A stretch of DNA of 53,848 bases, taken from positions 20,428,362-20,482,209 of the forward strand of contig NC_057719.1 in NCBI RefSeq assembly GCF_004010195.1, given 5' to 3'. The notes beneath the pieces were generated by a model. That model worked only from the letters and a program-made list of their open reading frames with translations. It was not told the DNA's origin and searched no databases. Below are positions 6,336 to 53,209 of the stretch, piece by piece; positions within the stretch are counted from its first letter, which is position 1; each line of letters opens with the position of its first letter. The DNA is from Chiloscyllium plagiosum (taxonomy: Eukaryota). Made by a program: the position numbers and the translations under genes.

Positions 6336-6371
6336 GCAAACGTTTCGTCCCCTGGCTAGGCTCATCAGTGC
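6336..6371 (-). ncRNA. Minimal hammerhead ribozyme motif in the inverted PLE terminus
   Basis: Minus strand reads GCA CTGATGA GCCTAGCCAGGGGAC GAAA CG TT TGC. Both core boxes are intact and stem I is GCA/TGC; stem II lacks 4 nt relative to the other copy. Confidence 0.7.
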
Positions 6372-7660
6372 TTGGGAGCCTCCTGCGAAGCACTTCTTTG
6401 ATGTTTCCTCCGGTGTTTATAGTGGATTGTCCCTGCCGCTTCCGGTTGTCAGTTTCAGCTGTCCGCTGTAGTGGTTGGTATATTGGGTCCAGGTCGATGT
6501 GTTTGTTGATGGAGTTTGTGGATGAATGCCATGCCTCTAGGAATTCCCTGGCTGTTCTCTGTCTGGCTTGCCCTATGATAGTAGTGTTGTCCCAGTCGAA
6601 TTCATGTTGCTTGTTGTCTGCGTGTGTGGCTACTAAGGATAGCTGGTCGTGTCGTTTCGTGGCTAGTTGATGTTCATGTATGCGGATTGTTAGCTGTCTT
6701 CCTGTCTGACTGCCAGACTACTGCGACCCCTAGGACTCACAACGGCACACAAACCAACAGCCACGCTCAGACAACAACTCACCAGAACGAAGGACCCGAT
6801 ACCCAACATAAGCAAGACGAATGTAGTGTACAAAACACCATGCAAGGACTGCACAAAACACTCTCTTAGGCATCTGTTGATGAAGTTGCGCGGGTATCCG
6901 TTTTTGGCGAATACCTTGTATAGGTGTTCCTCTTCTTCTTTTTGCAGTTCTGGTGTACTGCAGTGTGTTGTGGCTCTTTTGAATAGTGTCCTGATGCAGC
7001 TTTGTTTGTGTGTGTTGGGGTGGTTACTTTCATAGTTTAGGACTTGGTCTGTGTGTGTCAACAGATGCCTAAGAGAAAGACCACGGAACGAGGACATACC
7101 ACAACCAAAAGGATTAGCCACACTACCATACATCAGGAGCATCTCGGAACTGACAGCCAGACTACTGCGACCCCTAGGACTCATAACGGCACACAAACCA
7201 ACAGCCACTCACCAGCCACTCAGACAACAACTCACCAGAACAAAGGACCCGATACCCAACATGAGCAAAACTAATGTAGTGTACAAAATACCATGCAACG
7301 ACTGCACAAAACACTATATAGGACAAACAGGAAGACATCTGACAATCCGCATACATGAACATCAACTAGCCACAAAACGACACGACCAGCTATCCTTAGT
7401 AGCCACACACGCAGACAACAAGCAACATGAATTCAACTGGGATAACACTACTATCATAGGGCAAGCCAGACAGAGAACAGCCAGGGAATTCCTAGAGGCA
7501 TAGCATTCATCCACAAACTCCATCAACAAACACATCAACCTGGACCCAATATACCAACCACTACAGCGGACAGCTGAAACTGACAACCAGAAGCGGCAGG
7601 GACAGACCACTATAAACACTGGAGGAAACATCAAAGAAGCGCTTCACAGGAGGCTCCCAA

Positions 7661-7700
7661 GCACTAATGATGTCGCCTAGCCAGGGGACGAAACGTTTGC
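7661..7700 (+). ncRNA. Minimal hammerhead ribozyme motif in the PLE 3' terminus
   Basis: GCA CTAATGA T GTC-GCCTAGCCAGGG-GAC GAAA CG TT TGC. Stem II is intact; the core has one substitution (CTGATGA to CTAATGA). Confidence 0.7.
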
Positions 7701-8157
7701 AACAAAAACTTCCAGTTCGTCGAACAGAACCACAGCAACGAGCACCCCAGCTACAAATCTTCGCACAAACTTTGAATATACATTGTGTTTCAGCATTGTT
7801 AAATCACAATATTCCATTAGTTGCGATGCAAGGAACATTAAATTTGATCTTTGAAAGGAATATTTCCATGTTGTACAGGAAAGAATCACCAGGGGCCAAA
7901 GAAAAAAGTGGCATTGCTCTATAACTAAAAATTATATTAGTTTTATTTATCCATCAATCCATTGAGTCCACCTTTCTCATAAAGTGAACTAGTCACATCA
8001 TTCTCTGTTGGTTGCTTGCTAAATTATTACTTAGCAAATATGTAGCTTTGATGTCAATGGTTTATTGCAGCTATCTTCTTTGTTACCTGCTTAAGCTATT
8101 CCATTATAACTTTTACCCTGTATATGAATTGATATATGAGCATTACAGTAAATACAT

Positions 8158-8975
8158 TGTGACAATGCTATGGTTTTAAAAGGTTATTTTGTCCTGGTCA
8201 TTTTTTTTTTGGAAAGAGAGAGATTGGATGACAGACAACAAGCAGTCGAGGAGTAGATAAACAACTTGAAAAGTTTTTTTTTGAAGCTGAAATAATAGGA
8301 ACAGCCTGAATGGGTGTGGTCAAGCTCCCACCCACAGGGGTTATCAGATTTTAGTTTTCAGTAGCAGTTGCTGCTAGGGCCTTGAAGAAATGGAAGATTT
8401 TTTTCCCCTCTCAATTATAACCAAAAGCTGGGGTTCTCTTCCTCGGCTGCTGAGTTGCATGTGAGACTAAATGTGTTTTCTGAATTTGCTTTTTGACAAG
8501 GATGTGTTTATGGGATGTTACAACATTGGAAATGTTAATTAGTAACATTTACTGCAACCATTATTCTGTTAAAGTTTTCAATAGAGTTAGGTTGTTTCAA
8601 GTTCTTTCTTTTGTCGTATTTCAACGAAAGTTTGGACAAACTGTGTTTTGCTGAACATCGAGTAGTTTGACCGATCAAATTACATCTGGAACTCAGCATA
8701 GAACATTACACGCAGTACAGACCCTTCGGCCCTTGATGTTGCGCCGCCTGTCATACTAATCTGAAGCCCATTCCACCTACACTATTCCATGTACATCCAT
8801 ATGCCTGTCCAATGACGACTTAAATGCACTTAAACTTGGCGAATCTACTACCGTTGCAGGCAAAACATTCCACACCCTTACTACTACTCTCTGACATTTA
8901 CCTTTAAGATAAGAAAAGCTAAAGTCGAGGCTGTCTTCTTCATATATTTTAGGGAGGCTGGTCTGGTCCATAATA
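8158..8975. mobile_element. Solo LTR (Gypsy/ERV-like) with a 4-bp TSD, interrupted by a CR1 fragment
   Basis: Starts TGTGACA and ends CATAATA (one change from ..TAACA). ACAT lies on both flanks (8154-8157, 8976-8979). Non-coding interior. Confidence 0.55.
8697..8886 (-). mobile_element. CR1 3' fragment nested in the LTR
   Basis: Minus translation RVVVRVWNVLPATVVDSPSLSAFKSSLDRHM; similar to the tails at 3480-3690 and 51880-52060. Confidence 0.88.
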
Positions 8976-9494
8976 ACATTAATGTTTTACATCAAGCATG
9001 TGATCACTACTTTTCAGGCTAATGAATAAAAAGAAAAATAGTGCATTATAGAGGGAAAAAACAATTTTTTTTGTTTTAATTAGCCTCACTTCTTGCATGG
9101 TAGGAATTGGAGATGGACAATCAATGGCCAATCTACAGAAGCTGTCATCGTCAACACTTTTTGTGGTTATGCACACGCTTGCTTAGTGTCATCAGATCAG
9201 AGAACTGAACCTCAGAAACAGCTTCTGGCTCAACCCCACTCTCCGAAAACATCGGGCTGAACGTAATTGTTCGGTCTGTCATGTCCATGTTACTAAGGGC
9301 AAAAATCTTCTCTAGCCTTCAGTGGGCAATAGTGAATCAGTTGGGAAGACATGGTAAGAATTTTTTAATAATGAGATTCTTGAGATCAAAAGAAATTCCA
9401 GGAGCTAAGAATCTCATGACTGAGTAGCTAGAAGTCTATCAGCAAGCAGTAATATCTCAAATTACCTCTTCTCACCTCATTAATGTGGATTTAT

Positions 9495-9615
9495 ACAGAG
9501 TCATAGAGTCCTACAGCAGAGAAAGGCCCTTTGGCTCAAATTGGTCCATACTGATCAAAATGTCCATCCATGCTAGCTGTATTTCCCTGCACTTGGGCCA
9601 TATCGTTCTAATCCT
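9495..9615 (-). mobile_element. CR1 3' tail, left part of a copy split by the PLE
   Basis: cagagtcatagagtcctacagcagagaaaggccctttgg tail; the copy resumes at 12087. Confidence 0.8.
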
Positions 9616-12086
9616 GATACTGAGCTCTTCATCCGTCACCTTCATGCTCACTTCTTTGGGCAAGAGTCCTCCCCCCGCTCCACAGATCCTTTCACATCAC
9701 TCCAACATTCCATCTCTAATTGGACACCCCTGCCAGGACAATTTCCTGCCCTCGATCTTTTCATTGACGATTGTCAACGGGACATTGGCCGCCTTAATTT
9801 TTCTGCCCCTCTTACCCATTCTAACCTCTCTCCATCCGAACTTTCTGCTCTTCACTCCCTTAGGTCCAACTCTCAGATTCCTCCTCCTACCTTCCCCTGG
9901 AGCATGACCACACCACTGAGCATCAAGCCATTGTCTCCAACACCGTGACTGACCTCATTTCCTCCGGATGACTCCTCCCCACAGGTTCCAACCTCATAGT
10001 CTCCCAAAATCCACAAGAAGGACTATCCCGGCAGGCCCATTGTGTCAGCATGCTCCTGCCCCACTGAACTTATTTCCTCCGACCTTGACTCCATCCACAC
10101 TCCTCTGGTTCACTCCCTCCCCCTCATCTGGGATTCCTCTGATGCCCTGCAACACATTGACAGCTTTCAATTCGCAGGCCCTAACCACCTTCTATTCACC
10201 ATGGATGTGCAATCCCTTTACACTGCCGTCCCACACCAAGACGGCTTGAAAGCTCTTCGCTTCTTTCTTGAAAAGAGGTCCGAACAATCTCCATCCACCA
10301 CCACTCTCCTCCGCCTGGCTGAACTTGTTCTCTCTCTCAACAACTTATCCTTCAACTCATCTCATTTTCTCCAAACCAAAGGTGTAGCAATGGGTACCTG
10401 CATGGATCCTATCTACGCCTGCCTTTTCATGGGATATGTGGAACATTTCTTGTTCCAGGCCTACCCGGTCCCCTCCCACGACTGCTTTATCGGTACATCA
10501 ATGACTATTTTGGTGCAGCTTCATGCTTTTGTCCTGACCTGGAAAAATTCATAAACTTCGCTTCCCGTTTCCATCTCTCCATTACTTTCACATGGTCCAT
10601 CTCTGACACTTGCCTTCTTTTCCTTGACCTTTCTGTCTTCATTTCCGGCAATAGTCTATCCACTAATATCCATTACAAGCCCACTGAATCCCACAGATAT
10701 CTGGACTACAGCTCTTCTCACCCTACGTCCTGCAAGGACTCTATCCCTTTCTCTCGGCTCCTTCGCCTCCGCCACATTTGTTCCGATGAAGTCACTTTCC
10801 AAAGTGGTGCTCTTAATATGTGCTCCTTCTTCTCCAACCATGGCTTCCCACCTACAGTTGTTGACAGGGCTCTCGACAGCGTGTGGTCCATCTCCCACGC
10901 CACGACCCTCACCCCCTCCCTCCCCTCCCAGAACAAGGATAGGGTCCCTCTTGTTCTCACCTTTCACCACACCAGCCTTCACATGCAAAGAATAATGCTC
11001 CGCCATTTTTGCCAACTCCAACACGATGCCACCACTAAACACATCTTCCCTTCCCTCCCCCTGTCTGCATTCCACAGAGATCGTTCCCTCCCTCCGGGAC
11101 AACCAAGTCCACTCCTCCATCACACCTAACACCTCTCCCATCACACACGGCACCTTCCCATGCAATCGCAGAAGTGCAACACCTGCCCCTTTACCTCTTC
11201 CATGCTCACCATCAAAGGCCCCAAACACTCATTTCAGATTAAGCACATTTCACTTGTACCTCTTTCAATTTGGCCCATTGCATTCTTTGCTCCCAATGTG
11301 GGCTCCTCTATATCGGAGAGACAAAACGCCGACTGGGTGATCGCTTTGCTGAGCACTTTCAGTCTGTACGCAATCAGGTCCCGGACCTTCCTATGGCTTG
11401 CCACTTCAACACACAATCCTGCTTCCATTCCTACATGTCTGTCCATGGCCTGCTGCAATGTTCCAGTGAAGCTCAATGCAAACTGGAGGAACAGCATCTC
11501 ATCTTCCGACTAGGCACGTTACAGCCTGCCGGTCTCAATGTTGAATTCAACAACTTCAGATGATTATCCCATCTCGACCCCGCTGTTTTCATTCTGCTCC
11601 ATAACTTTATTTTATTTATCCTTTCTTTTATATTTTTTTCACTGTTCTGTATCTCTCATTTCTTGATTGTGTCTCTTTCTCTTGCTCCCCACTCTCTCAT
11701 CAGCTTTTTCCTCTCCTCTTCCCCCTTTGCTACCCTTCTCCCCTGTTTTCCATTTTGCCTCTGCTTCACCCATCCCCTCATCCCCTCATCCCCCACATAT
11801 TTTGTCACATAGCACTGGCTTCAGCCTTGGTCATTCACAGCTCCTAATCTCCCTTTAATCTCTCTATGCACTGTCATTATCATCTCTTTATTGCTATCTT
11901 TGCTTCTCTCAGCCTAGAATAAATACCTCCCTATTTCTCCCTTTTTTTAGCTTTGACAAAGGGTCAGTTAGACTTGAAACATCAGCTCTTTTCTCTCCTT
12001 ACAGATGCTGCCAGACCTGCTGAGATTTTCCAGCATTTTCTCTTTTGGTTTCAGATTCCAGCATCTGCAGTAATTTGCTTTTTTCC
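9616..12086 (+). mobile_element. Penelope-like element (Neptune-type), 5'-truncated, decayed RT + GIY-YIG, with a 10-bp TSD
   Basis: RT motifs LLFTMDVQSLYTAVPH, QTKGVAMGTCMDPIYACLFMGYVE and RYINDYF (YIDD mutated). Cys-rich linker TFPCNR/KCNTC. Endonuclease CILCSQCGLLYIGETKRRLGDRFAEH..EQHLIFRLGTLQPAGLN. Frameshifted. Pyrimidine-rich 3' UTR. TTCTAATCCT at 9606-9615 and 12087-12096. Confidence 0.93.
11949..11987 (+). ncRNA. Decayed hammerhead ribozyme motif in the Neptune-type PLE terminus
   Basis: AGCT TTGACAA A GGGTC-AGTTA-GACTT GAAA CA TC AGCT. Reversing three CpG decays and one C>T gives CTGACGA..GACTC GAAA CG TC, a GUC cleavage triplet with stem I AGCT/AGCT. Confidence 0.62.
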
Positions 12087-12614: not shown

Positions 12615-14043
12615 CAAAAGAAAGAGAGGAAATTGCTCGGGCCTTAACTAAGAACTTTGTATCCCCATTAGCCACTGGAGAGGTCTCAGCCGACTAGCGA
12701 GTAGCTAACATTGTTCCTTTGTTCAAGAAGGGAAAATAGGGATAATCCAGGAAACTATTGACTGGTGAGTCTCACATTGGTGGTTTGGAAGCTGTTGGAG
12801 ACAATTCTTATGGATAGAATTTGTGCACATTTGGAAAAGCATGGTCTAATAAGGGACAGTCCACCTGGTCTTTTACAGGGCAGGTCATGTCTTGGTTGAA
12901 TTTTTCAAGGAGGTGATGAAGGTGATTGATGAGAGTAGAACAGTGGATGTTGTTTACATGGATTTTAATGAGACTATCAACATGGTTCCTCAGGCTCATC
13001 AAGAAGTTTAAGATACATGGGATCCATGGTAACTTGGCCACGGAGGTCAATGATTAGTGTTGTTCTGCAGGGATCCGTTCTGGGACCTCCGCTGTTTGTG
13101 GTACATATAATAAATGTAGATTGGTGCATTAGTAAGTTTGCAAATAATACAAAGATCGTGAAGTTGTGGATATGCAGCAGATTGTCAAAGGATTCAGCAG
13201 GACATAGGTCAGTTACAGTTATGGGCGGAGAAATGGCAGATGGAGTTTAATCTGCAGTGTGAGGCATTGCACTTTGGGAGATCAAATGTTCAGGAAAAGT
13301 ATACAGTTAATGGCAAGACCCTGAATGGCATTGATGTACAGAAGGATCCTGGGGTTCAAGTCCATAGCTTCTTGAAAGTGATCACGCAAGTAGATAGGGT
13401 GGTAAAGAGGGCATATGGCATGCTTGCCTTTATAGGTCAAGGAATTGAGTACAACTATCAGGATGCCATGCTGGAGTTTTATAAGACTTTGCTTAGGATA
13501 CGCTTAGAGTATTGCATTCAATTCTGATCGCCACATTCCAAGAGGGATGTGGAGGCTTTGGAGAAGGTCCAGAAGAGGTTTTCCAGGATGCTGCCTGGAT
13601 TAGAGGATATGAGCTATAAGGAGAGGCTAGGAAAACTCAGTTTGTTTTCTCTTGAGCAGCAGAGGCTGAGGGGAGACTTGATAGAAGTTTATAAAATGAG
13701 AAGATGCATAGATAGGGTTGGTGGGCAGAATCTTTTTCCCAGAGTTGCAATGTCTAATACTAGGGACCACATTTAAAGTGAGAGCTCAGAAGTTCAAAGG
13801 GAGGGGCAGGTTTTTTACATAGAGAGATCAGGAGTCTGAAATGCACTGTCAGGAGTGCTGGTGGAGGCAGATATGATAAGGTCATTTAAGGAATGTTTAG
13901 ATAAGCACATAAATATGGAAGGAATGGGGGGGGGATATGGACCAAGGGCAGACAGAAGGGATTAGTTTAATTTGGCATCATGTTCAGCGCAACATCATGG
14001 GCCAAAGGGCCATTCCTATGCTGTACTGCTCTATGTTCTATTG
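12615..14043 (+). mobile_element. CR1 LINE, RT region to 3' end, with internal deletions
   Basis: QGSVLGPPLFVVHI, SKFANNTK, CEALHFGRSN, YKTLLRIRLEYCIQF, LEKVQKRFSRMLPGL, RLRGDLIEVYK; tail ctctatgttcta. Confidence 0.92.
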
Positions 14044-14069: not shown

Positions 14070-14865
14070 TGCTAAATTTGCATCCACTTGGATGCTCACA
14101 TCATCTCTGCTGTGTCTTGCTTTGCCTCTTGGTGTAGACAGAGATTAGAGCAGCTTGTCATGTTTGGCAGTATTGTCAATTCGGGACAATGGTCAATTAG
14201 AGGGTTGATCAATCGTCAGCTGAGAGACGTAGACAGGTGCTCTAAGTGAGTGGATAGGCTGCACAGACAGCAGAAAGGGTTAGCAGCTTGGGGGGATAAG
14301 GTGGGTGAATTGCACTGAGGGAAGATGTTGCATGCGATATTAAGATTCATAAACCTTGGTGTGTACTGGTGCAATAGTAGAATTGGAGAGAAAGTTGGGC
14401 AGCGTAGAGAGGGTAATGGCACATACCCTTGCAGAGCCCCAAGAAAGTCATTAATCTTCATACAACATGCTAAATTTGCATCCACTTGGATGCTCACAGC
14501 ATCTCTGCTGTGTCCTGCTTTGCCTCTTGGTGTAGACAGAGATTAGAGCAGCTTGTCATGTTTGGCAGTGTTGTCAATTCGGGACAATGGTCAATTAGAG
14601 GGTTGCTCAATCGTCAGCTGAGAGACGTAGACAGGTGCTCTAAGTGAGTGGGTAGGCTGCACAGACAGCAGAAAGGGTTAGCAGCTTGGGGGGATAAGGT
14701 GGGTGAATTGCACTGAGGGAAGATGTTGCATGCGATATTAAGATTCGTAAACCTTGGTGTGTACTGGTGCAATAGTAGAATTGGAGAGAAAGTTGGGCAG
14801 CGTAGAGAGGGTAATGGCACATACCCTTGCAGAGCCCCTAGAAAGTCATTAATCTTCATACAACA
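14070..14865. repeat. Tandem duplication, 2 x 398 bp
   Basis: Units 14070-14467 and 14468-14865 both begin TGCTAAATTTGCATCC and end AATCTTCATACAACA. About 7 substitutions by eye and no indels. Confidence 0.95.
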
Positions 14866-15825: not shown

Positions 15826-15950
15826 AATGACAGATACTGTAAATCAGAAACAAAAGTAGAAAATCCTGGAAAAGCTCAGCAGGTCTGGCAGCATCTGTGG
15901 AGAGTAATCAGAATTAATGTTTCAGGTCGAGTGAACCTTCCTCAGAACTC
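15826..15950 (-). mobile_element. Solo PLE-terminus short element with HHR motif (15911-15950)
   Basis: Reverse complement resembles 11949-12086. HHR reads GAGTT CTGAGGA A GGTTC-ACTC-GACCT GAAA CA TT AATTC. Confidence 0.8.
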
Positions 15951-17242: not shown

Positions 17243-17550
17243 GCACGGTGGCTCAGTGGTTAGCACTGCTGCTTCACAGCACCAGGGTCCCAGGTTTGAT
17301 TCCAGCCTTGGGCAACTGTGTGGAGTTTGCACATTCTCCCCATGTCTGCATGGGTTTCCACTGGGTGCTCCGGTTTCCTCTCAGTTCAAAGATGTGCAGT
17401 TTAGGTGAACTAAATTGTCCATGGTGCTAGGTACATTAGTCAGAGGGAAATTAATCTGGGTGGGTTACTGTTCGGAGGGTCGGTGTGAACTGGTTGGGCC
17501 AAAGGGCCTGTTTCCACACTGTAGGGAATCTAATCTAATCTAATCTAAAA
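17243..17550 (+). mobile_element. HE1-type V-SINE
   Basis: Same A/B boxes, V-domain and (TAATC)n tail as 5224-5533. Confidence 0.92.
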
Positions 17551-17857
17551 CTTTACTTCAACTTGTTCTATTACATAGGACTGTTTACTTGTGCATGGGG
17601 ATTTGCAGCATTGGTGAGACCAACATGTTCTTGACTGTAATAAAGCAGAAAAAGACTCATCACAGTTCAAAAGGAAAATCTGTCTCTGCTAAACTCTGAC
17701 TTAAATTCTCCAGAGTCACAGAGTCCATTAATCTGCAGTTATCAATAATGGAAGTATCAGTGGATTATACTGATTTAATAACGCATGGTTTTTTTTCTTC
17801 CAATAATTTACGTTGTTCTGAAGTTAAAATAATTTTCAAAAGCTTAAAGAACTTTGT

Positions 17858-19668
17858 CTAAATTGGAGAAAGGCCAATTTTGATGGTATTAAGCAAGAAC
17901 TTTCAAAAGCTGATTGGGCAGATGTTCGCAGTAAAGGGACGGCTGGAAAATGGGAAGCCTTCAGAAATGAAATAACGACAATCCAGAGAAAGTATGTTCC
18001 TGTTAGGGTGAAAGGAAAGGCTGGTAGCTATAGGGAATGCTGGATGACTAAAGAAATTGAGGGTTTGGTTAAGAGAAAGGAGGAAACATATGTAAGGCAT
18101 AGACAGGATAGATCGAGTGAATCCTTAGAAGAGTATAAAGGCAGTAGGAGTATACTTAAGAGGGAAATCAGGAGGGCAAACAGGGGACATGAGATACCTC
18201 TGGCAAAGAGAAGTAAGGAGAATCCAAAGGACTTTTATAAATACATTAAGGACAAAAGGGTAACTAGGGAGAGAATGGGGCCGCTCAAAGATCAGCAAGG
18301 CAGCCGATATATAGAGCCACAGGAGACAAGGGAGATACTAAACGAATATTTTGCATCAGTATTTACTGTGGAAAAGGATATGGAAGACATAGAATGTCGG
18401 GAAATAGACGGTGACATCTTGAAAAATGTCCATATTACAGAGGAGAAGGTGTTGGATGTCTTGAAACGCATAAAAGTGGATAAATCCCCAGGACCTGATC
18501 AGGTGTATCCTAGAACTCTGTGGGAAGCTAGGGAAGTAATTGCTGGGCCTCTTGCTGAAATATTTGTATCATCAATAGTCACAGGTGAGGTGCCACAAGA
18601 CTGGTGGTTGGCTAACATGGTGTCACTGTTTAAGAAGGGTGGTAAGGACAAGCCAGGGAACTATAGACTGGTGAGCCTGATGTGGTCCACTAGTTTGCAT
18701 CATTTATATAAATGATTTAGATTGAACATAGGAGGTATAGGTAGTAAGTTTGCAGATGACACCAAAATTGGAGGTGTAGTGGACAGCGAAGAAGAAGGTT
18801 ACCTCAGATTACAACAGGATCTTGATCAGATGGGCCAATGGGCTGAGAAGTGGCAGATGGAATTCAATTCAGATAAATGCGTGGTGCTGCATTTTGGGAA
18901 AACAAATCTTAGCAGGATTTATATACTTAATGGTAAGGTCCTGGGAGTGTTGCTGAACAAAGAGACCTTGGAGTTCAGGTTCATAGCTCCTTGAAAGTGG
19001 AGTCGCAGGTAGATAGGATAGTGAAGAAGGTGTTTGGTATGCTTTCCTTTATCGGTCAGAGTATTGAGTACAGGAGTTGGGTGGTTATGTTGCGGCTGTA
19101 TAGGACATTGGTTCGGCCACTGTTGGAATATTATGTGCAATTCAAGTGTCCTTCCTATTGGAAAGATATTGTAAAACCTGAAATGGTTCAGAAAAGATTT
19201 ACAAGGATGTTGCCAAGGTTGGAAGATTTGAGCTATAGGGAGAGACTGAACAGGCTGGGGCTGTTTTCCCTGGAGCGTCGGAGGCTGAGGAGTGACCTTA
19301 CAGAGGTTTACAAAATTATGAGGGGCATGGATAGGATAAATAGACAAGGTCTTTTCCTTGGGATGGGGGAGTCCAGAACTAGAGGGCATTGGTTTAGGGT
19401 GAGAGGAGAAAGATATAAAAGGGACCAAAGGGGCCACTTTTTCATGCAGCAGGTGGTACGCCCTATGGAATGAGCTGCCAGAGGAAGTAGTGGAGGCTGG
19501 TACAATTACAACATTTAAAAGGCATTTGGATGGGTATATGAATAGGAAGGGTTTGGAGGGTTACGGGTCGGGTGCTGGCAGGTTGGACTAGATTGGTTTG
19601 GGATATCTGGCATTGACGGGTTGGACCGAAGGGTCTGCTTCTATGCTGTACATCTCTATGACTCTATG
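17858..19668 (+). mobile_element. CR1 LINE, 5'-truncated, with a large internal deletion near 18683
   Basis: ORFs 18008-18715 (KENPKDFYKYIK..KSPGPDQVYPRTL..KPGNYRLVSL), 18722-18994 (SKFADDTK) and 18991-19473; tail ctctatgactctatg. Confidence 0.95.
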
Positions 19669-21584
19669 GCTCCCTGACTCTATATATTGGTTCTTTCACA
19701 CTTTGGTGAGCTATAACTGTACTCCCAATTGCATGCAAAAATATTTTACTCAGCTTCTGATCTAGGATCTAGCTTGGAATCAATTCTAACATCTTCAAAA
19801 TAGCTTTCTCCAAGATGTCCAATTCATTTGAAATCTGCCTGGTGGTATGCTTTTTGCTGCCAGGTCTTCCTACTGTGATTATTTATTTTCTTTACCTTTT
19901 AGCTCTTTAGTGTAGCATTGCTGCTACTACTCTACTCAAAGCACTTCTCATTCTTTTGTAGTCAAAGTAGAAATTCCTGTCCTCAATGAATAAAACAAAT
20001 GATTTCCAGCTTTTGCAGAGACTTTCTTGATGAATTGTGCTAAGTGCGCTACTCTACACTGTCGCTACTGGAGCAAATGTTGCCACTCTTCAGTGCCATC
20101 ACACCTCCATGATGCCATTGCCACCATGAATCCTCGCTCCCTCAACAATTCAGACACTACCAATGCCACCGGGTACTGCACCAGCCCAAATGCAACTCCT
20201 CTGCTGCCAAGAATCTGGGCCCACCTCAAGCGATGCAGCCAGGGTCTCATACCAGGCCCAAAATCACCTCCTCCGCCACCTCCATGAATCTGTAATGGAC
20301 TGAGATGCTACCAGGAATCCATGTAAGATGTGTCCCATTCCTTTAAAGGTTTTTCTCAGGGGAATTCCACAGTCTGTGGCTGCAACTCCTCATGAAATCT
20401 GATGATGCTTCATCAAATGCTGTGAGTAGAGATATGTGCATCATGTCAATGTTACTTACTTACAGCAGTGTGGTGTGCAGCCTTATTTAGACAAGGAATC
20501 TTCCCGTAATCTGCAGTCTGGTGGGTGACATGTTGTCACAATTTGCAACTGATAATAAAAGACACTAATTTGATTCAGCATTTTAAGCGTTAATGTTAAT
20601 TTAAATACCTTGTCATTAGCAAAAAGCACTGAATCTGACATGGGATTAGTGAGGTATAAAGGAATTTGACAGCATTGAAGTCTAATGGTAAAATAATACA
20701 GCCTTTCTGTAGTTACTGGGAGACCATATATGTTAAATATATTGATTAGTGTCACATAACTCACATGGAAGGATTATTGTGTGACATCTGTCACATTTAA
20801 ATTTTGTTTGAACAATGTAATTATATTTCACTGACCAAATCATACTCTTGGCTAAATCAATACAACATGACATTCATAACTTCTCCGTAATCATGCATTT
20901 TTCTATTAATTTATGAAAAAGCAAACATTTCTTAGACTTATTGGTTTAAAATGGATTTTGCATATTTGCACAATATTTGTGGCTTAAACATATTTTGCTC
21001 CTTTTAAAAACAGAGAAAAGCATGGAATGAGAAAAGGCATTTTGTTCGATTGAGCCCGCATCTGTCACAAACTCTGTAAGATACCACAAAATTGATGCTG
21101 AACTGTGGATTTATCCATTATGGAAAATCAATCATTTTTCTCTTTGACCCTGAAGTTTGCTGAAGAGAACTGCGATGGTAGAGTTCTTTTGGTTCTCTTT
21201 TTTAAAGATGGTTCTGACTATCTCTCCACATCTCCACAGTCAAATTAATCCGAATTTAATCCAGCAGACGTTCAGCAGCTGGGGCTTTGGCAGATTCCAA
21301 CCACCACCACCACCTTCAGTGACACTCGACAATGGGGGTTAGAACATACATCCACAGCTTAGACTTTTTGGAAGAGAGATTTTGCAAATCAAAGAAAACT
21401 GGCCGCAGCAAGGATAAGAACACAAGTTGCTTGACTGGAATCAGACTGTACAATAATTAGAGAGTGAGGTCACATGGAGTGTGGTTGAAAACATATTGGA
21501 TTTACGTACAGAAGACACAGTGAGTTGATTCTTACATTTAATTTTTGGTTGAAGTGTCAGCTGTGGCATGTTCCATGGAGGGTA

Positions 21585-22047
21585 GGTTTGGAATGGTAGG
21601 CCTAACATACGATGAACAGTTGAGGATCCTGGGATTGTATTCATTAGAGTTGAGGAGGTTGAAGGAAGATCCAATAGAAATTTACAAGATAATACATGGC
21701 TTAGATAGGGTGGATACTGGGAAGTTGCTTCCTTTAGGTGGAGAGACTAGGACCCATGGGCACAGCCTTAGAATTGGAGGGGGTAAATTTAGAATGGAAA
21801 TGAGGAGACATTTCTTCAGCCAGAGAATGGTGGCCCTGTGGAATTCATTGCCGCGGAGTGCAGTTGAGGCCGGGACGTTAAATGTCTTCAAGGCAGAGAT
21901 TGATAAATTCTTAATCTCACAGGGAATTAAGGGCTACAGGGAGAGTGCAGGTAAGTGGAGTTGAAATGCCCATCAGTTATGATTAAATGGTGAAGTGAAC
22001 TCCATGGGCCGAATGATCTTATTTCCACTCCGATATCTTATGGTCCT
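21585..22047 (+). mobile_element. CR1 3' fragment
   Basis: LTYDEQLRILGLYSLELRRL..IEIYKI..RHFFSQRMVALWNSLP..FKAEIDKFL; tail tcttatggtc. Confidence 0.92.
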
Positions 22048-23821: not shown

Positions 23822-24028
23822 CCATGTTTCCTCTGGTGCTCCAGTTTTCTCCCACAGTCCAAAGCTGTGCTAAATTGCCATAGTGTTCAGAGATGTGTAG
23901 GTTGGGTATGTTAGCGGCAGGGTTACTGTAATGGAGTCTGGGTGGTGCGTCTGGGTGGGATGCTCTTCGGAGTATCGATTTGAACTCGACAGGCTGAATG
24001 GTCTTCTTCCACACTGTAAGGATCCTAT
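23822..24028 (+). mobile_element. HE1-type SINE, 3' half
   Basis: gtttcctctggtgctccagttttctcccacagtccaaag...gctaaattgcc...tccacactgtaagg. Confidence 0.78.
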
Positions 24029-29115: not shown

Positions 29116-29234
29116 GGACAAATCTCTGCTTTGGCCGATTTGGTATCAACACAGCAACAGTCTTGCTTTTGCATGTGACAAATAATTTTTAAAAATCACT
29201 ATTAAGATGATACCAGCAGACCATTTAACAGATT

Positions 29235-29333
29235 ATTAGATTAGATTAGATTAGATTACTTACAGTGTGGAAACAGGCCCTTCGGCCCAACAAGTCCACA
29301 CCAACCCACCGAAACGCAACCCACCAGACCCAT
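29235..29333 (-). mobile_element. HE1 SINE 3' tail fragment
   Basis: (TTAGA)n followed by cttacagtgtggaaacaggcccttcggcccaacaagtccacacc, the reverse complement of 5440-5527. Confidence 0.88.
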
Positions 29334-30570: not shown

Positions 30571-30706
30571 CCCATTCGGGCAGAGTCTGTGCCTCCAAAC
30601 TGGAATAATCAGCCACCACAGAACTCCCCTCAGTAAAATTTGTAGGCTATAAATTTCCAACTCCTGGTCATTCTTGCCTTCATCTGAAATAAGATACAAA
30701 TTTTTA

Positions 30707-30974
30707 TTAGATTCCCTAGAGTATGAAAACAGGCCCTTCGACTCAACAACTGCATACCAACCCTCTGAAGAGTAACCCGTTCCTATATTTACCTTTGACT
30801 CATACACCTAACACTATGGGCAACTTAGCATGGCCAATTCACCTTTGGACAGTGGGAGGAAACCCACACAGTCACAGGGAGAATGTGCAAACACAGTCAG
30901 TCACCCGAGGCAGGAATTGAACCCGGGTCCCTGGTGCTGTGAGGCAGCAGTGCTAACCACTGAGCCACCGTGCC
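30707..30974 (-). mobile_element. HE1-type V-SINE
   Basis: Reverse head ggaattgaacccgggtccctggtgctgtgaggcagcagtgctaaccactgagccaccgtgcc. Confidence 0.9.
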
Positions 30975-32149
30975 TCCTTTGCAAAGGTCCCCTCCTGTCA
31001 TAATACAAGCTAATGATGTTAAGATAATGATAAGTACAGTCCCTTTTTATGTGCCTTTGCTAAAGCAGATTGAGCAAATAGAGGATTGGTTGCATTATGA
31101 TCTTTGCCAGAAGGATGTCGAGCTATCTGCTTGTACTTCCATTGCTTCCTGCCTCTAAAATAGATTCTTGTCTCACTTACCACATTGGGGAGTGGGAGTG
31201 GGGAGGCTGTGAGGAAATCAAGAGTTTTGCCAGCTGGCATTACCGGTAGTACACTCTGTAACATTCCTACTGCTAAAACTGCTGTTGCCCAGCTCCCTTG
31301 GCTGCAATAAGGCACCCATATGGGTGAAGTTGAAGGTTGGTTTTACACCTCCCTGAATATTATCATTCATTGATTTTAATGGAAAAGAAAATCATGTAAG
31401 CTGTCAAGCTAGCATTCAATTCTATTTCTGAGTTACATTTAAAAAAACTCATTGAGGTCTAAAAATGACCTTCCATCTGATCCCATTGGGGGATCTGGGT
31501 TAAAATTACTTCATACGTCTTTGAAGTCTATATCTCTCTGTGAGTGATGAGAACGTACTAGAAATCAATGGGTAAAACACACAGAGAGTCGACAAGCATA
31601 GATATGATAAAATACAAGTGGCTGCAAGACAAGCTCAAATGATAAGACAGTGCAAAGACTTCAGCTGCCAATCATTCTTTTCTACACACTGCAATATTAG
31701 ATCTTAGAATACATCAATATTGTGAGTAAAAGTCTTCTTATTCCCATTCATAGTCACATAGATTTGTCTCTCTTATTGATTGAGAAGATAATGATCCTCT
31801 CAAATTTTCACAATAGAGGCTACAAAGTGATCTATAAGATAAAAATGTGGCATTATGCAACATTGTTTTCTTAACAGTAGACATACCTTCTGATCAAAGT
31901 TATTTGAAATGGGTCAACACAATTGTTTAATGATCTCTGCTGATAATCATTTTATATAACAAGTTTCACATCAAAGCAGTCCCTTCTTTGATTTGAAACT
32001 TTAAGAAACAGAGTGGGTCAGTAAGAACTTACAAAAATCTTTATACTTGGCAGTTGCAGCCTCTTTAGGGAACATGGATATATTTGAGACAGTTCTGCTT
32101 TGAGGTTGCATTTTCCATTTTGCCTGATAAAATGCAAGAAACGTTCATC

Positions 32150-32500: not shown

Positions 32501-33151
32501 ACTTGGCTACAGAATTCAGGAATATTATCTGAAGGAGGTAGGAAATCACAGTGTTGACTGCAAAAAGACCCCACCAAGCAGTACAGAGATTCAGGATTAT
32601 TATTTTGAGGCAATTAAGGTATTCAAAGGAAATTAGTACAGCTTCTCTGTCATGCCGAACTGAAAATTGTATTAGAACAAATTGCAACATTGCTATATTG
32701 AACACTGTAAAAGCACATAAAATATACAAAATAAAACATCATTTAATTATTGCAAGATTAAAAGCTTTCAAGTCAGGAATACAGCTGCATTTAGACACTA
32801 CAAAAATTAAAACAGCTTTAATAGAAGAAGAAAATAATCAGATTAAGAAGACCTGGAAGGAGAATAATACTACCACAGAGATTTGGTCTCAGAGATGAGC
32901 CAAACAACACAGGATTGTACACCTTGGAGAAAGGAATTGTTAAGATACAGAATCACTTCAAATTTAAACTAGAAATTCAATTGAAATTGGTCAGTAAGCA
33001 TAATAGTAATTATGGACATTTTTAAAAAATCTTCTAATGTGATATGTTTATTTTTTAATTTTATGAACAATTAATAAAAATGACTTTTAAAATGATGCCA
33101 AGCACCACAACTAACTAAGAAGTGTGATTTTTTTTCCTGTCTCAGTTAAAA

Positions 33152-33446
33152 TCACAGCACCAGGGTCCCAGATTCGATTCCAGCCTTGGGCGACTGTCTG
33201 TGTCAAAGGAAATTCTCCCCGTTTGTACATTCTTCCGGTGTCTGCGTGGGTTTCCTCTGGGTGCTCCGGTTTCCTCCTACAGTCCAAAGGTGTGCAGGTC
33301 AGGTGAATTGGCCGTGCTAAATTGCCAATAGTGTAAGGTGCATTAGTCAGAGGGAAATGGGTCTGGGTGGGTTACTCTTCGGAGGGTCTGTGTGGTCTGG
33401 TTGGGCTGAAGGGCCTGTTTCTACACTGTAGGGAATCTAATCAAAA
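33152..33446 (+). mobile_element. HE1-type V-SINE, 5'-clipped
   Basis: B box, V-domain and gggctgaagggcctgttt tail. Confidence 0.88.
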
Positions 33447-33647
33447 ATAGCAGAGAGAGAAATCAAGAGAGAGAGACTACATTCTAAATCTTGATCACCA
33501 AGAAAGTGGTTTGGGACTGGTTCTGAGCTAGGGAATAATGTTTAACTAATACTGACCTGTTCACCTCTATTGTTGCACACTCTGAGCTACTCGCGGTGGA
33601 ATTCATAAGAAGGTGAGAGTCAGAATAATGTTCCTTTTCAGGCTTGG

Positions 33648-33740
33648 ACAGAAATTGCTGGGAAAACTCAGCAGATCTGGCAACATCTATGGGGAGAAAA
33701 CAGAGTTAACACTTCAGATCCAGTGATCCTTCTTTAGAAC
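33648..33740 (-). mobile_element. Solo PLE-terminus element with decayed HHR
   Basis: Minus strand reads GTT CTAAAGA A GGATC-ACTG-GATCT GAAG TG TT AAC, followed by an agatgttgccagatctgctgagttttcccagc tail. Confidence 0.7.
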
Positions 33741-42052: not shown

Positions 42053-42192
42053 ATAAAAACCAAAAGAACTGCGGATACTGTAACTCAGAAATAAAAACAG
42101 AAGAGTCACCAGACTGGAAACGGTAACTCTGATTTCTCTTCACAGGTGTTGTCAGACCTGCTGAGCTTTTCCAGCAACTTCTGGTTTTGTTT
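42053..42192. mobile_element. Inverted-dimer PLE-terminus element with a 15-bp TSD
   Basis: Minus-oriented tail (aaaaccaaaagaactgcggatactg..cagaaataaaaacagaa) joined to a plus-oriented partial HHR and tail. CAAACTTTAAACTAA at 42038-42052 and 42193-42207. Confidence 0.8.
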
Positions 42193-42221
42193 CAAACTTT
42201 AAACTAATCTCACTATCACCA

Positions 42222-43068: not shown

Positions 43069-43160
43069 GAGTTCTGATGATGTAATTGATCTGAAATATT
43101 AACCCTAGGAGTCTCTGCGCAAATGTTGTTTGGTTTGCTCAGTGATTCTCAGACACTCCA
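43069..43160 (+). mobile_element. Old solo PLE-terminus element with HHR core
   Basis: GAGTT CTGATGA TGTAATTGATCT GAAA TA TT AACCC followed by a degenerate tail. Confidence 0.5.
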
Positions 43161-43511
43161 GTCTTAATGCAGACAGAGAGCATGGAGAGAATAGAGGCTT
43201 ACTGAGCAGTGGAATAAGCATTCATCACTCCTCACATTAGTCCATGGGAATATCTCAATTCTCAAAGATATTGTCTTGGTCAGCTTCAACATGCTGGGAA
43301 TTGAAAATGCTAATTTTATAACTTTGCATTTTCATTGAAACAATTTACCTACAAGGAATGCAAATTGACCTAGATCATAACCATGGTGGCTGTTGATGCT
43401 CCAACAACTTTCCCATTTACACTGCCTCTCTGCTTTATTTTTTATTTCCTTACTTGCCTGACCACAGCTACTTTCACTTTGTGCCATTCTGAATCTCCAC
43501 TGTTGTCCATC

Positions 43512-43852
43512 TAGATTAGATGATTAGATTAGGTTCCCTACAGTATGGAAACAGGCCATTCAGCCCAACAAGTTCGCAGTGCCCCTCCAAAGTGTAACCC
43601 ACCAAGACCCATTCCCCTACCCTATATTTACCCCTGACTAATGGACCTAACACTATGGGCAATTTAGCCTGGCCAATCCACCTGACTTGCACATCTTTGG
43701 ATTATGGGAGGTAACTGGAGCACCAGGAGGAAACCCACGTAGATATAGGGAGAATGTGCAAACTCCACATATACAGTTGCCTGAGGTTGGAATCAAACCT
43801 GGGTCCCTGGAGCTTTGAGGCAGCAGTGCTAACCACTGAGCCACTATGCTGT
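43512..43852 (-). mobile_element. HE1-type V-SINE
   Basis: Reverse complement of the full HE1 layout, with a TAATC-type tail at the left. Confidence 0.9.
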
Positions 43853-44034
43853 CCACTATGCATACATCTAATGAAATTCTAATTCTTTTTCCCTTCGTTT
43901 CAACCTTTCTTAACTCCGTACTAGCTTAAAACATTGCAGACTCTCTAACATTTTTCCAGTTCTAGTTGTCTTAACATCTCTACTTGGAAAAAAAGTAACA
44001 AGCTTTGATTAAAGAAATTACTTCAAGGTAACAA

Positions 44035-44725: not shown

Positions 44726-44829
44726 GTTCTGAGGAAGGGTCACTGGACCCAAAACGTTAACTCTGATTTCACAGATGCTGCCAGACCTGCTGAGCTTTTC
44801 CAGTAATATCTGTTTTTTTGTTTCTGATT
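44726..44829 (+). mobile_element. Solo PLE-terminus element with HHR motif
   Basis: GTT CTGAGGA A GGGTC-ACTG-GACCC AAAA CG TT AAC (one CpG decay from GAAA), then cagatgctgccagacctgctgagcttttccag. Confidence 0.8.
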
Positions 44830-45244
44830 AACGCAGATTACGGATTTTTGGATTATGCTTGTTGAAGGCTTGTTCTTTCAGCCCCTGAACATTGCAATGG
44901 TAGTTCCTCAGGTTCATGTCTAAGACTGATCATTTTCAGTGGTCTCATTCATAATCGTCCTTGCAGCACAGAGTGGAAGGATCATGAATGTTTATTTCAC
45001 TGCAAGGTGCACTCTGGATTAGTACACATATATCCACCCTGCATCTTGGTGAAAATGTTAGTTAGGAAACAGATCAGCTGCAATTTCATTAAGTAGTTCG
45101 CATGTCAACTTGGCTATCTCAATATTGCACCGTTTCTGATCCATAGTGCTCAGATTCATAGGGGGGAGTGAATAAAAATAAAATAAATATTTCAAGTTAA
45201 ATGGCACTTTTTCTTCATGAGTTCAAGTGTCTTATTATCAATAT

Positions 45245-45380: not shown

Positions 45381-46055
45381 TAGAATTAGAATTAGCTTTA
45401 TTGTCAAATATACACTTTGGGTACAAGTTTTTAAGTACAAATTTTTAGGGGAAAAAAATTAGAAAAATAAAGAAATAAAACTTCAGAATAATAGTCCTTC
45501 TAATCCAGTCCCTGTGGCAACTTGCCTTCGGTCAGTGCCAGGCTTCATCTCAAGTCCAGATGTCCACGTTGAGATCTCTCGGCAAGACACTGCCACTCCA
45601 GGCCTGCTGAGAGACTGCCACACCAGGCCTGGAGGATACCACACTGGGCCAGAAGACTACCACACTGGGCCAGGCCACTGAGAGACTGCCACACTAGGCC
45701 ACTGAGAGACTACCAACCAGACCACGGAAAGACTGCCACACTGTGCTACTGACAGACTGCCACATCAGTCCTGGAGACTGCCACACCATGCCGAGAGAGT
45801 GCCGCTCGGGGCCAGGGGACCGCCACACTGGGCCACCGAGAGATCACTGCGCCAAGCCATGAGACAGCAATGCCGGGCCACCAAGAGACCATAACGCCAG
45901 GACCAAACTGACACTGAGATTCTGAGTCCGTGCTGAGGCTGCGAGTTCAGGATATCACCAAGAAAAAAGAAGGAAAAAAGCACAAAAGAGAGAAGAAAGA
46001 AATGGATAGAGTTGGTGAGTTCCAACTGGAGAGTTCTACTTCACCACCATTTTGA
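45380..46055 (-). mobile_element. Probable non-autonomous retroelement carrying a minisatellite
   Basis: Minus strand starts CAAAATGGTGG (a decayed AAGATGGCGG-like start) and ends CAATAAAGCTAATTCTAATTCTAA (polyA signal plus microsatellite tail). Confidence 0.45.
45586..45905. repeat. Degenerate GC-rich minisatellite, unit about 20-24 bp
   Basis: Roughly 14 imperfect units of GAGACTGCCACACTGGGCCACT. Confidence 0.85.
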
Positions 46056-46167: not shown

Positions 46168-46322
46168 AAAGTGTGGTGCTGGAAGAAACACAATGGGTCA
46201 AGCAGTCCTGATGAAGCTTGAAACATCAACTTTCTTGTTCCTTCGATGCCTGACTTGTTATGCTTTTTCCAGCACCACAGTTTATCGACTCTGATTTCTC
46301 CAGCATCTGCAGTCCTCACTAT
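46168..46322. mobile_element. Inverted-dimer PLE-terminus element (second subfamily) with HHR core
   Basis: gtggtgctggaa..aa pairs with ttttccagcaccac. The centre reads CTGATGA AGCTT GAAA CA TC (46208-46227). Ends cagcatctgcagtcctcact. Confidence 0.72.
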
Positions 46323-50072: not shown

Positions 50073-51090
50073 CAATAGTAACTTAAATGCGTCCACATTT
50101 CTTAAGACACAGAAACATTATGATCAGTGACCTTACTAATCATTGGGTCATCATGTGATCATTAACTTCTCCAATAAGGCAAACATTTCTTTTGTTTCCT
50201 TCATTTCATTTTATTTTGACTAAACCAGTAAATTTTAGGTTAATACTTACATTGACCATTGAGGTAAAGATTATTGCAGAGAATCATGCATCACTTCTTA
50301 TACCAGTAGAATAGTAAGAGCCAAATGGCTGCAGGTTCTGGTTTGGCATGTGGAAAATGTTTTGTTTTTTTCTGAAAATCCTCCATACCATCTTCAAAAT
50401 GGAAGACCAGATGTCGCCTTCAGTTATGTGTTTGGCAGCACCAGTTTGACATTTGAGGGATAATTGCACTCGTATGCATAATATGTTTATCTGTTAATGC
50501 TCTAATCCAATAATTGTCAACTTAAAATTAAAACAAAATTATTACGTGTTAGGAAGTTGGAGGTGAGTTTATCCTTTTTTTTAAAAATCTAGCACTCCAG
50601 AAAACCATTTCACCAGAGGTAAAAGTTTGTCACAAAATTTGCAATGACGAATAAGTGAATGCTGGCGGAGTAAATTAAAATAACACAAATATTATGAAAT
50701 AATGAATAATATCAAAACATGTTTATATTCACAACTGAGCTGAAGTAAACATTTACAAATAGATGTTGTGCAATGAGTTCCTGGATCAACCAAACTGGCA
50801 TATTGGTAACAGAAATCCAGTGTGGCTAAGTGAGTCAAAACCTGATAAATAAAAATAAGAAAAGTATTCCTGGCTGATACCTGGTGAGAGAAATAATGAA
50901 CTCCATTAGCTATTAGCTGACAGCTACATGAACAATTCTGCAGGCTATCTAACAAATTTGAGAGCACTGATTTTACAATCCAGTTACAATTAGGCTCACT
51001 ACAGTGAGACTAGCATGTGGATGCTTTTGGATACCAGAGTTCAAACAAAATGCGGAGGACCCAGGGAGCATACAGTATGCATTTGCTCAG

Positions 51091-51100
51091 ATGACGTCAG
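51091..51100. promoter_or_regulatory. Full palindromic CRE (TGACGTCA), candidate only
   Basis: ATGACGTCAG with its CpG retained, in unique sequence. Function is unverified. Confidence 0.25.
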
Positions 51101-51398
51101 GGGTGCAAAACTCCTGCTTTGATGAGAGACGTGAGGTAATAAGAGCTTTCTAAAGAAGCAGCAAAGGAAAGGGGATGTTTAATTGAGCTTTCAGAGACTA
51201 AGAGAGGTTTTGGTAGAATGAACATTGACAGATTTTTCCTCTTGTTACTTTTCTATCTTTCATATTCTTCCCTTAGAGAATAGTTTGAACAGGAGAATGA
51301 TTCACAGGCTAATTAACTGTCTGATAGACTGCAACATAAACTCTTCTTCCACGTCTGTGTCTATCTTTACACCAACCAAAAGGGAGGTTAGAGCTGGT

Positions 51399-51570
51399 AC
51401 AAAAACAAAAATTGCTGGAGAAAGTCAACAGTTCTGAAGATGGGTCCCTGAGATTGAAATGTTAACTCTTGTTTCTTTTCATAGATGCTGCCAGACCTGT
51501 TGAGTTTCTCCACCAATTTCAGTTTTGTTTCAAATTTCTAGCATATTGCAGTTCGTTGTTTTACTTTAGG
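51399..51570. mobile_element. Inverted-dimer PLE-terminus element with HHR motif
   Basis: aaaacaaaaattgctggagaaa (minus tail), then GTT CTGAAGA TGGGTCCCTGAGATT GAAA TG TT AAC (51431-51466) and the plus tail agatgctgccagacctgttgag. Confidence 0.75.
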
Positions 51571-51879
51571 TCAGTGTGGGATGATGCTGGGATCTTATTC
51601 TACTGGCTTCTAAAACTTAAATGTAAACAGAGGACTTCAGCTTCCACAGATGTACTGATGACCAATATCAAGAAGTATCAGCTGTGGCTCAGTTGGTGTG
51701 TTAGTCTCTGATTTGCAAAGCCCTACATTCCAGTCCCACTCCCAGGCTTGGGAGTTGGTTTAGCTGGATGGCTGGTTTATAATGTGGAGTGATACCAACA
51801 GCATGGATTCAATTCCTGCCTAGAACTGAGATGGCCATTTTTGATTGGGAAATACACAATGTGTGCTGGGTTGATGTAG

Positions 51880-52337
51880 AATATAGAACATAGAAGAATG
51901 CAGCGCAGTACAGGCCCTTTGGCCCTCGATGTTGCACCAATCCAAGCCCACCTAACCTACACTAGCCACTATCCTCCATATGCCTATCCAATGCCCGCTT
52001 AAATGCCCATAAAGAGGGAGAGTCCACCACTGCTACTGGCAGGGCATTCCACGAACTCACGAAGTGCCTCAGCCTTTCCTCATACGATCTTCCTATCATA
52101 CCAGGCAACATCCTGGTAAACCTCCTCTGCACCCGTTCCAGTGCCTCCACATCCTTCCTATAGTACGGCGACCAAAACTGCACACAATACTCCAGATGCG
52201 GCCGCACCAGAGTCTTATACAACTGCAACATGATCTCAGGACTCCGGAACTCAATTCCTCTACCAATAAAAGCCAGTACGCCATATGCCTTCTTCACCGC
52301 ACTATTTACCTGGGTGGCAACTTTCAAAGATCTGTGT
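51880..52337 (-). mobile_element. Young CR1 3' fragment with an internal deletion
   Basis: Uninterrupted LYKTLVRPHLEYCVQFWSPYYRKDVEALERVQRRFTRMLPG, then a jump at RLRH/FVSSWNALP. CpG-rich. TTCTATG tail. Confidence 0.93.
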
Positions 52338-52381
52338 ATATTAAACTTGGATTGGAGCCAAGCTTAATTTTAGCGCTAAAA

Positions 52382-52665
52382 TAAAATAATGAACAGTGGA
52401 TGCTGGAAATCTGAAACATAAACAGAAAGTGATGGAGAAACTCAGCAGATCTGGCAGCATTTGCAGAGAGAGAGGAACAGAGTTAATGCTTCATGTCCAG
52501 TGACCCTTTGTCATAACTGATAGCAGTTGAGAAAGGGTGTCATTTATTCTGATGACAGCTAACTCACTCCCCATCATCAGCAGAAATAAACCCTTTTCCC
52601 AGCCGCTGATGAATGTTCATTAGACGAGAAATGCTACTTCTGTTTCTTCCTTTTCAGATTCCAGG
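52382..52665. mobile_element. Inverted pair of PLE termini, each with a decayed HHR
   Basis: Minus copy 52382-52520 (cagttatgacaaagggtcactggacatgaagcattaactc). Plus copy from CTGATGA at 52606..GAAA. The central arms gaaagggtg..tttatt.ctgatga / tcatcag..aaataaacccttttc are inverted. Confidence 0.65.
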
Positions 52666-52835
52666 TGTCAAAACTATTTCTTCAAGGCCTGGAAAATAAG
52701 GATTTCTGTACCAGGACTGATAAAACTGATCTTGACCACTGGAACTCTGGGATGCCAACTCTCTAGCATGGAATAGTTCCGACATACACTTTGATGCGAA
52801 ATGAGCAAATCAGATAGACCTCAATCCAAAAAGTC

Positions 52836-52920
52836 AAAAGTGAGGACTGCAGATGCTGGAAACCAGAGTCTAAATTAGAGTGGTGCTGGAAAAACACAGC
52901 AGGTCAGGCAGCATCCGAGG
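52836..52920 (-). mobile_element. PLE-terminus tail fragment (second subfamily)
   Basis: gtgaggactgcagatgctgg..gtggtgctggaaaaacacagcaggtcaggcagcatcc. Confidence 0.7.
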
Positions 52921-53087
52921 GTGAGGAGGAGGAAGCTGCCTCTGGTCAGTGGAGCCAGTACTCACTTTTTGGCCTGACAATGTATAGACCGGTTGATGAA
53001 AAAAGACCAAGGATCATCTAGTTCAGCTTCTCTCATCCTGATAGTCCATGATACAATAATTATGGGATAGTTGACTAACCTTGGAGA

Positions 53088-53209
53088 ACGTGAGGACTGC
53101 AGATGCTGAGATCAGAGTCAAAAGTGTGGTGCTGAAAAAGCGCAGCAGGTCAGGCAGCATCCTAGGAGCAGGAGAATTAATGTTTCAGGCATGAGCTATT
53201 CATCAGGAA
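53088..53209 (-). mobile_element. Solo PLE-terminus element with HHR core
   Basis: Minus strand reads TTC CTGATGA ATAGCTCATGCCT GAAA CA TT AATT, then the tail ggatgctgcctgacctgctgcgctttt. Confidence 0.75.

Follow-up and report, generated by a model that had tools for sequence, protein, structure and literature searches.

The 53,848-nucleotide stretch of the Chiloscyllium plagiosum genome analysed here (contig NC_057719.1, positions 20,428,362 to 20,482,209; hereafter the window) carries 13 minimal hammerhead ribozyme motifs, all of which lie in ends of Penelope-like elements (PLEs), the assignment of the motif at 43069 being probable. A first-pass annotation had recognized the pattern at 13 sites and attributed it to PLE pseudo-long terminal repeats (pseudo-LTRs) encoding minimal type I hammerheads with an ACGU palindrome, and both claims were borne out, the pattern being found at all 13 sites as such or in decayed form (for minus-strand sites, the annotated coordinate marks the motif's 3′ end). 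Profile hidden Markov models (HMMs) trained on copies from other parts of the genome matched 12 of the 13 sites, and gave no match in the reversed window or in 20 reversed random stretches. The match at 43069 was weak (E 0.0067), and its local alignment score of 49 lies between the 99th percentile (41.5) and the maximum (50.5) of 1000 reversed controls. The motif at 52606 had no HMM match; its alignment score of 63 exceeded all 1000 reversed controls (maximum 50.5). Rfam covariance models run on the window at E ≤ 10 gave eight matches, none of them to a hammerhead family, a result that concerns the decayed window copies only.

Two of the motifs, at 6336 and 7661, are Poseidon-type (family A), and the other 11 are Neptune-type (families N1, N2 and N3; 43069 only probably). 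These putative clade names are based on an interdomain linker and on layout, not on a reverse transcriptase (RT) tree. The Poseidon-type pair belongs to an inverted, 5′-truncated insertion occupying both strands of 6299–7778, with thumb and GIY-YIG pieces and a hammerhead end on each side; its arms are 6362–6708/7324–7670 (96% identical) and 6299–6361/7675–7737 (97%). Its GIY-YIG match to Pfam was weak (E 0.062), and related copies were found by tblastn. The layout of 7036–7778, with no Cys linker and an ATG in the hammerhead, fits Penelope/Poseidon, as judged from this truncated window copy alone. In the minus-strand hammerhead (6339–6368) both core boxes are intact, and a 4-base deletion has taken position 9.1 and the stem II 5′ strand; intact copies of the family occur elsewhere in the genome. 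Its plus-strand counterpart (7661–7700) has a G5-to-A change at 7666, an ATG (7670) overlapping A9-9.1-G10.1, and a predicted cut after 7697. At the family level, the ATG and the beginning of stem II overlap, the cut site lies 28 bases further on, and the two ends differ by about 40 bases. The annotation had listed the stem II pairs of all copies together; the GTC/GAC pair comes from this other, Poseidon-type clade.

One Neptune-type insertion, 9577–12072 on the plus strand, consists of a decayed, 5′-truncated open reading frame (ORF) with RT, Cys-linker and GIY-YIG domains (9577–11563) followed by a 3′ pseudo-LTR (11948–12072) with an N2 hammerhead and tail. The RVT_1 (E 0.001) and GIY-YIG (E 0.009) matches both fell below curated cut-offs; the ORF has 144 scored relatives in the genome, and the relative at locus L084 passes RVT_1 and has the linker CX2-5CxxC, which is also readable at window positions 11160–11185. 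A linker of this form between RT and endonuclease marks the Neptune clade (PMC8557442, in the text available). The motif accompanies an RT and GIY-YIG ORF here and at six other loci (L084, L092, L095, L097, L098, L102); the copy at L092 is full-length, its ORF being flanked by two pseudo-LTRs that lie 3.2 kb apart and both carry the motif. The pseudo-LTR motif at 11949 had been listed among sites with the pattern or CpG-decayed versions of it. It has two CpG-type changes, but its UUGACAA box is not a product of decay, since U3-A8 is the norm of the N2 family: among the matches listed, U3 occurs with A8 in 96 of 100 and G8 in none, which ruled out a CpG-decayed core as the reading of this box.

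The other Neptune-type copies are short stubs. Those of family N1 lie at 15832–15949 (minus strand; with intact core boxes, damaged in stem II and palindrome), 33642–33740 (minus; G5, A15.1 and palindrome changed), 42100–42200 (plus; first core box missing, U16.1 changed), 44726–44831 (plus; the best preserved, complete except for G12-to-A at the catalytic base), 51392–51544 (plus; with an inverted arm, damaged in the stem II 3′ strand and palindrome) and 52393–52517 (minus; C3, G8 and A15.1 changed). To these are added the probable and strongly decayed N1 stub at 43072–43175 (plus) and a decayed N1 end at 52573–52675 (plus) that includes the upstream TATA-like region and was identified by alignment against the controls. 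Family N3 is represented by stubs at 46173–46295 (plus; with an inverted arm, stem II mostly deleted) and 53105–53209 (minus; damage in stem II and palindrome, with the core boxes intact), and by a tail-only fragment without hammerhead at 52846–52920 (minus), which was absent from the annotated sites. The statement that nearly every copy is damaged can be sharpened: each of the 13 has at least one damaging change relative to its own family and none is intact, which places the window on the decayed side of the genome-wide population.

At the family level the ribozyme is well preserved. CUGANGA, GAAA and then U-H are present in the families, although with stems included the motif is complete in none of the 13 window copies. 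The G10.1-C11.1 pair closes stem II in all four families, an extra base stands between 9 and 10.1 (A in N1, N2 and N3, U in family A), and patterns that demand the ACGU palindrome (15.1–16.1) gave 255 to 131,039 matches against 0–70 when reversed. By eye, stem I differs between families in its first pair (A-U, U-A or C-G) and its second (C-G or U-A), and pairs 2–4 of stem II are likewise swapped, while the TTAT copies of N3 have a U-U mismatch in stem I. The conserved core and stem covariation expected by the first-pass annotation are thus found at family level by inspection of the alignments. Because cores are conserved and stem pairs swapped across families, selection appears to act on the active elements. 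Inserted copies, by contrast, show no sign of selection on the ribozyme: in 27 incidentally sampled N1 copies most CpG sites had decayed, and non-CpG mismatches affected 23 of 266 core positions against 71 of 584 tail positions (p 0.16), so that cores decay no slower than tails; the alignments of these copies had to begin at model position 5 or earlier, a requirement that favours intact cores. The Neptune tails (e.g. window 12005–12066) contain short self-complementary blocks that are kept in N1, N2 and N3 while the rest varies, suggestive of a conserved hairpin that may form between the two 3′ ends of these tails.

The claim of a very large ribozyme-derived load was confirmed. Across the 3.56 Gb searched, an intact-core pattern, which demands the core boxes, G-C pair and palindrome while leaving complete stems optional, was matched 131,039 times, compared with 70 times when reversed, and in family N3, 62,625 young copies combine the core with both stems; the corresponding pattern matches numbered 867 for N2 and 255 for N1. 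In 20 unselected 10-kb stretches from 20 chromosomes (193,999 bases without N) we found 61 module matches, 43 of which cover the ribozyme from its start and six of which have the strict core, so that the density of about one per 4–5 kb noted in the window also holds outside it. Extrapolated, the genome would contain roughly 0.6–1.1 million remnants, inverted arms counted separately, with an intact core in about one in six or seven. The load is more than ten times the per-genome figures of about 2,000–9,000 given in the available text of PMC4209133, which were obtained with another descriptor.

Insertion ends offer a probable explanation for this load. We examined 100 copies, the first listed among 69,351 exact matches to the tail, which come from young N3 families in the first 3 Mb of chromosome C1, counting positions from +1, the first base of stem I, with the cut site at +32 to +34. 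The 5′ ends were concentrated at −2 to +4 (43 copies) and +5 to +16 (27), with only two at −10 to −3, five at +17 to +31, two at the cut site and one further down; the remaining 20 extended beyond −10. The 3′ ends clustered at +93–95 (30 copies) and +129–131 (33), and 49 of the 100 copies had an inverted arm upstream. Genome-wide, exact junctions numbered 7,778 at +1, 1,418 at +5 and 404 at the cut site; the patterns differ in filters and anchors, and after a rough correction +1 remains about tenfold above the cut site. These counts led us to reject insertion starts at the cut site as a footprint of cleavage.

The position at which 5′ ends pile up is also where a promoter would be expected to start transcription. 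The Neptune ribozyme starts 29–33 bases downstream of a TATA-like box, which is TATAAA at −29 in both long N1 copies and at −31 to −33 in 16 of 22 N2 copies, and a weaker, TTATC-type box at −31/−33 in 19 of 27, 3 of 6 and 8 of 12 N3 copies; the pseudo-LTR of a rotifer PLE has been described as carrying a TATA and initiator pair (PMC3846280, available text). The main ORF of the young N3 family begins at +167. An ATG in the tail was ruled out as its start, since in the young family that frame runs into a stop after only 42 codons; the resulting 42-codon upstream ORF in the young N3 leader (e.g. locus L136, about 1443–1570) overlaps the start of the main ORF out of frame.

The base preceding +1 is suggestive of a capped template. 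Counted by hand in the rows listed, with C excluded by the search pattern and about 25 of 100 expected, G precedes +1 in 54 of 100 N3 rows (26 of 43 with a flank judged non-element) and in 52 of 100 N1 rows (39 of 78 after 10 rows with one repeated flank, one duplicate and 11 long copies were dropped), compared with 19 of 100 at cut-site junctions. An extra G derived from the cap has been reported at full-length L1 insertions (PMC11702581, available text), and a cap-derived G likely precedes about half of the +1 starts here, although this evidence is suggestive and not clean, because a control at +5 was equally rich in G (58 of 100 listed rows). Among +5 junctions with a non-element flank G was present in 18 of 43, and 11 of these 18 lie in G runs matching the element's own +11 to +15. 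The repeated flank, a single 10-base sequence preceding the motif in 10 of 100 N1 rows (e.g. G000:C1:17780689 and C1:22201794), suggests that an N1 stub is carried inside a different repeat or that these rows form a subfamily whose leader is its own. At nine loci (L133, L137, L139, L148, L149, L151, L152, L155 and L160) a short run of ORF sequence is followed by a new copy from +1, often after a G, an arrangement that looks like a template jump from a capped 5′ end to a second RNA.

We consider it probable that the motifs are decayed PLE hammerheads and that most Neptune stubs arose by reverse transcription of uncut, capped RNA primed internally, about 93–131 bases from its predicted 5′ end. 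That the template was uncut is suggested by the 5′ ends at −2 to +4, their scarcity at the cut site and the excess of G at −1. A TATA/initiator promoter would start the Neptune mRNA at stem I, as the position of the boxes suggests, so that the ribozyme would form its first 32–37 bases, and the element protein would, by analogy with an anole element discussed below, prime reverse transcription at one of two sites 93–131 bases downstream. Priming in the 5′ repeat would yield a short complementary DNA (cDNA) that runs to the capped end, often with an added G, and contains the whole uncut ribozyme; this cDNA would often be joined to a second, inverted one. Priming in the 3′ repeat would yield longer truncated copies such as 9577–12072. 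Since every short cDNA of this kind carries the ribozyme, the load can be explained without any host function. In active elements selection would maintain the ribozyme, whose predicted slow cutting, as a dimer or with protein, may remove the capped leader or trim tandem transcripts; inserted copies would then decay.

Several observations weigh against this scheme. The 5′ edge is spread over −2 to +4 and decays to +16 instead of falling on one base, the RNA run described below showed no pile-up of molecule ends, the start being deduced from sequence, and the N3 box is not a canonical TATA, while the promoter of D. virilis Penelope is described as TATA-less (PMC2377424, available text). To these must be added the G-rich +5 control and the scope of the end sample, which covers young N3 copies at the beginning of one chromosome. 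Such a spread, together with the G content at +5, would also fit a pile-up that arises where the ribozyme fold halts synthesis or promotes template switching, or where two cDNAs anneal at its palindromes, and not at an RNA end. Inverted arms upstream of 42 of the 70 copies starting between −2 and +16, and seven head-to-head pairs among 100 N2 matches that join at self-complementary stem I sequence, likewise favour this alternative. It is nevertheless less easily reconciled with the sharp fall upstream of −2, with the TATA spacing in N1 and N2, or with an excess of a single G at −1 in two families whose cut products start with different bases, and we regard it as unlikely.

The first-pass annotation also suggested that intact copies could cut host intronic RNA. 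This proposal was not supported: RNA reads run across the cut site on both strands with no step in depth, old cores show no sign of selection, and no host gene was established in the window. In one single-cell RNA run, 2,477 of 12,955,460 records carry the young module, on both strands, and 95% of these continue into unrelated sequence; a second run from the same sample had no reads on it. Depth on the two strands was 461 and 639 at position 1420 of the locus carrying the module and 470 and 689 at 1427, with the cut after 1422, although single-cell libraries could miss cut ends, so that this result limits cutting without excluding it. That dispersed intact copies cut host pre-mRNA in vivo, as dimers or with element protein, would draw on the abundance of young copies with both stems and core, on their presence in RNA, and on the report that an anole ribozyme cuts once element protein is added (PMC11167929, available text). 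On the other hand, the inverted arm upstream of nearly half of the sampled young copies would pair with them, no two of the first 100 fully paired copies listed lie within 1 kb of each other on the same strand, cores accumulate mismatches like tails, and monomers of the published minimal motifs do not cut (PMC4209133, available text); we therefore find such cutting quite improbable. The same low degree of belief attaches to a further speculation, that a germ-line burst of element protein could trigger trans cutting of thousands of host transcripts through some 60,000 intact stubs that carry the ribozyme and a likely protein-binding tail, with the mRNA hammerhead able to remove its own cap. A role of the tail's pyrimidine tract and AG as a splice acceptor beside the cut site was discarded, as young families lack that AG and no joint there was among those listed for the RNA run. 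When 83 of 199 non-repeat frames of the window were compared with Pfam for a host gene, a single weak match fell below the cut-off; it concerns a 118-codon frame at 32542–32895 on the plus strand (zf-C2H2_aberr, E 0.0019), possibly an exon and possibly chance.

Least probable of all is that the stubs form an independent non-autonomous family, like a short interspersed element (SINE) or a retrozyme, spreading through ribozyme-cut or circular RNA: their uniform length of about 95 or 130 bases and occasional short tandem pairs (L024, L045) would fit, but cut monomers would start at the cut site, where 2 of 100 do, the stubs that start at +1 are without the upstream promoter region, the same sequences are also found leading into PLE ORFs, and the window copies are dispersed without arrays.

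Minimal hammerheads in metazoan PLE pseudo-LTRs were described by Cervera and de la Pena in 2014 (PMC4209133), and the motifs reported here agree with the available text of that paper in being type I, with only a palindrome for helix III, an extra base between 9 and 10.1, a G10.1-C11.1 pair and a short helix I, in falling into several covarying families, and in occurring mostly as solo copies from truncated elements. The U3-A8 core variant is given there for Schistosoma, whereas here it characterizes a vertebrate Neptune family, and that text neither places the motif at the transcript start nor analyses insertion ends. Small dimer-cleaving PLE hammerheads are cited in PMC6765202 (available text). 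Internal priming, two tail ends and an uncut RNA template are features of the anole Poseidon element PAc (Frangieh et al. 2024, PMC11167929, as far as available). Like PAc, the Neptune families appear to use two internal priming sites bounding a tail of 30–40 bases; family A resembles it in having the ATG at the start of stem II, a cut 28 as against 26 bases on, and a far end 109 as against 111–118 bases after the ATG. Unlike PAc, the Neptune ribozyme and both 3′ ends lie in a 5′ leader upstream of the ORF at +167, and the copies are mostly leader-only stubs. Animal non-LTR retrozymes (Li et al. 2026, bioRxiv 10.64898/2026.07.22.740005, available text) are PLE-derived and type I and have been reported in one cartilaginous fish; by definition they form tandem arrays in which two or more successive units each contain a complete ribozyme, whereas the copies in the window are dispersed or head-to-head, and isolated two-unit tandems occur only at other loci.

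In the literature outside subscription journals, we found neither these families nor the 5′ junctions of PLEs treated in any paper. Lunse, Weinberg and Breaker reportedly described PLE hammerheads with a reduced stem III and dimer cleavage in 2017, with about 150,000 over all the genomes that they searched. These families may already be listed there or in the supplements of PMC4209133 or Li et al. 2026. The pairing of hammerhead and PLE is known, this genome is a new and very abundant example of it, and a testable account of the load through insertion ends is the addition made here. The role of the ribozyme in transposition is described as still open (PMC8557442, available text). More than 10^5 natural insertion junctions in this genome bear on it, and they suggest that the template was usually uncut and capped. 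If, as predicted, the Neptune mRNA begins with the ribozyme, a cut would remove the cap. The young intact families and the natural U3-A8 family provide ready substrates for tests of dimer or protein-assisted cleavage.

The window also contains other repeats. A family of dispersed SINEs, each roughly 300 bases long and tRNA-like at the head, presumably resembles shark V-SINEs; its members are present at 5215–5540, 17243–17548, 23835–24027, 29229–29326, 30700–30977, 33152–33445 and 43522–43861. Long interspersed element fragments of CR1/L2-like type lie at 1420–2644 (with an RVT_1 match at 2327–2641, E 8.8e-11), 13162–13598, 17828–19610, 21542–21964, 52101–52363 and 53589–53848. Two 300-base direct copies, 98% identical and 398 bases apart, occupy 14070–14767, and a G+C-rich, minisatellite-like array with units of about 21–24 bases is found at 45599–45851.

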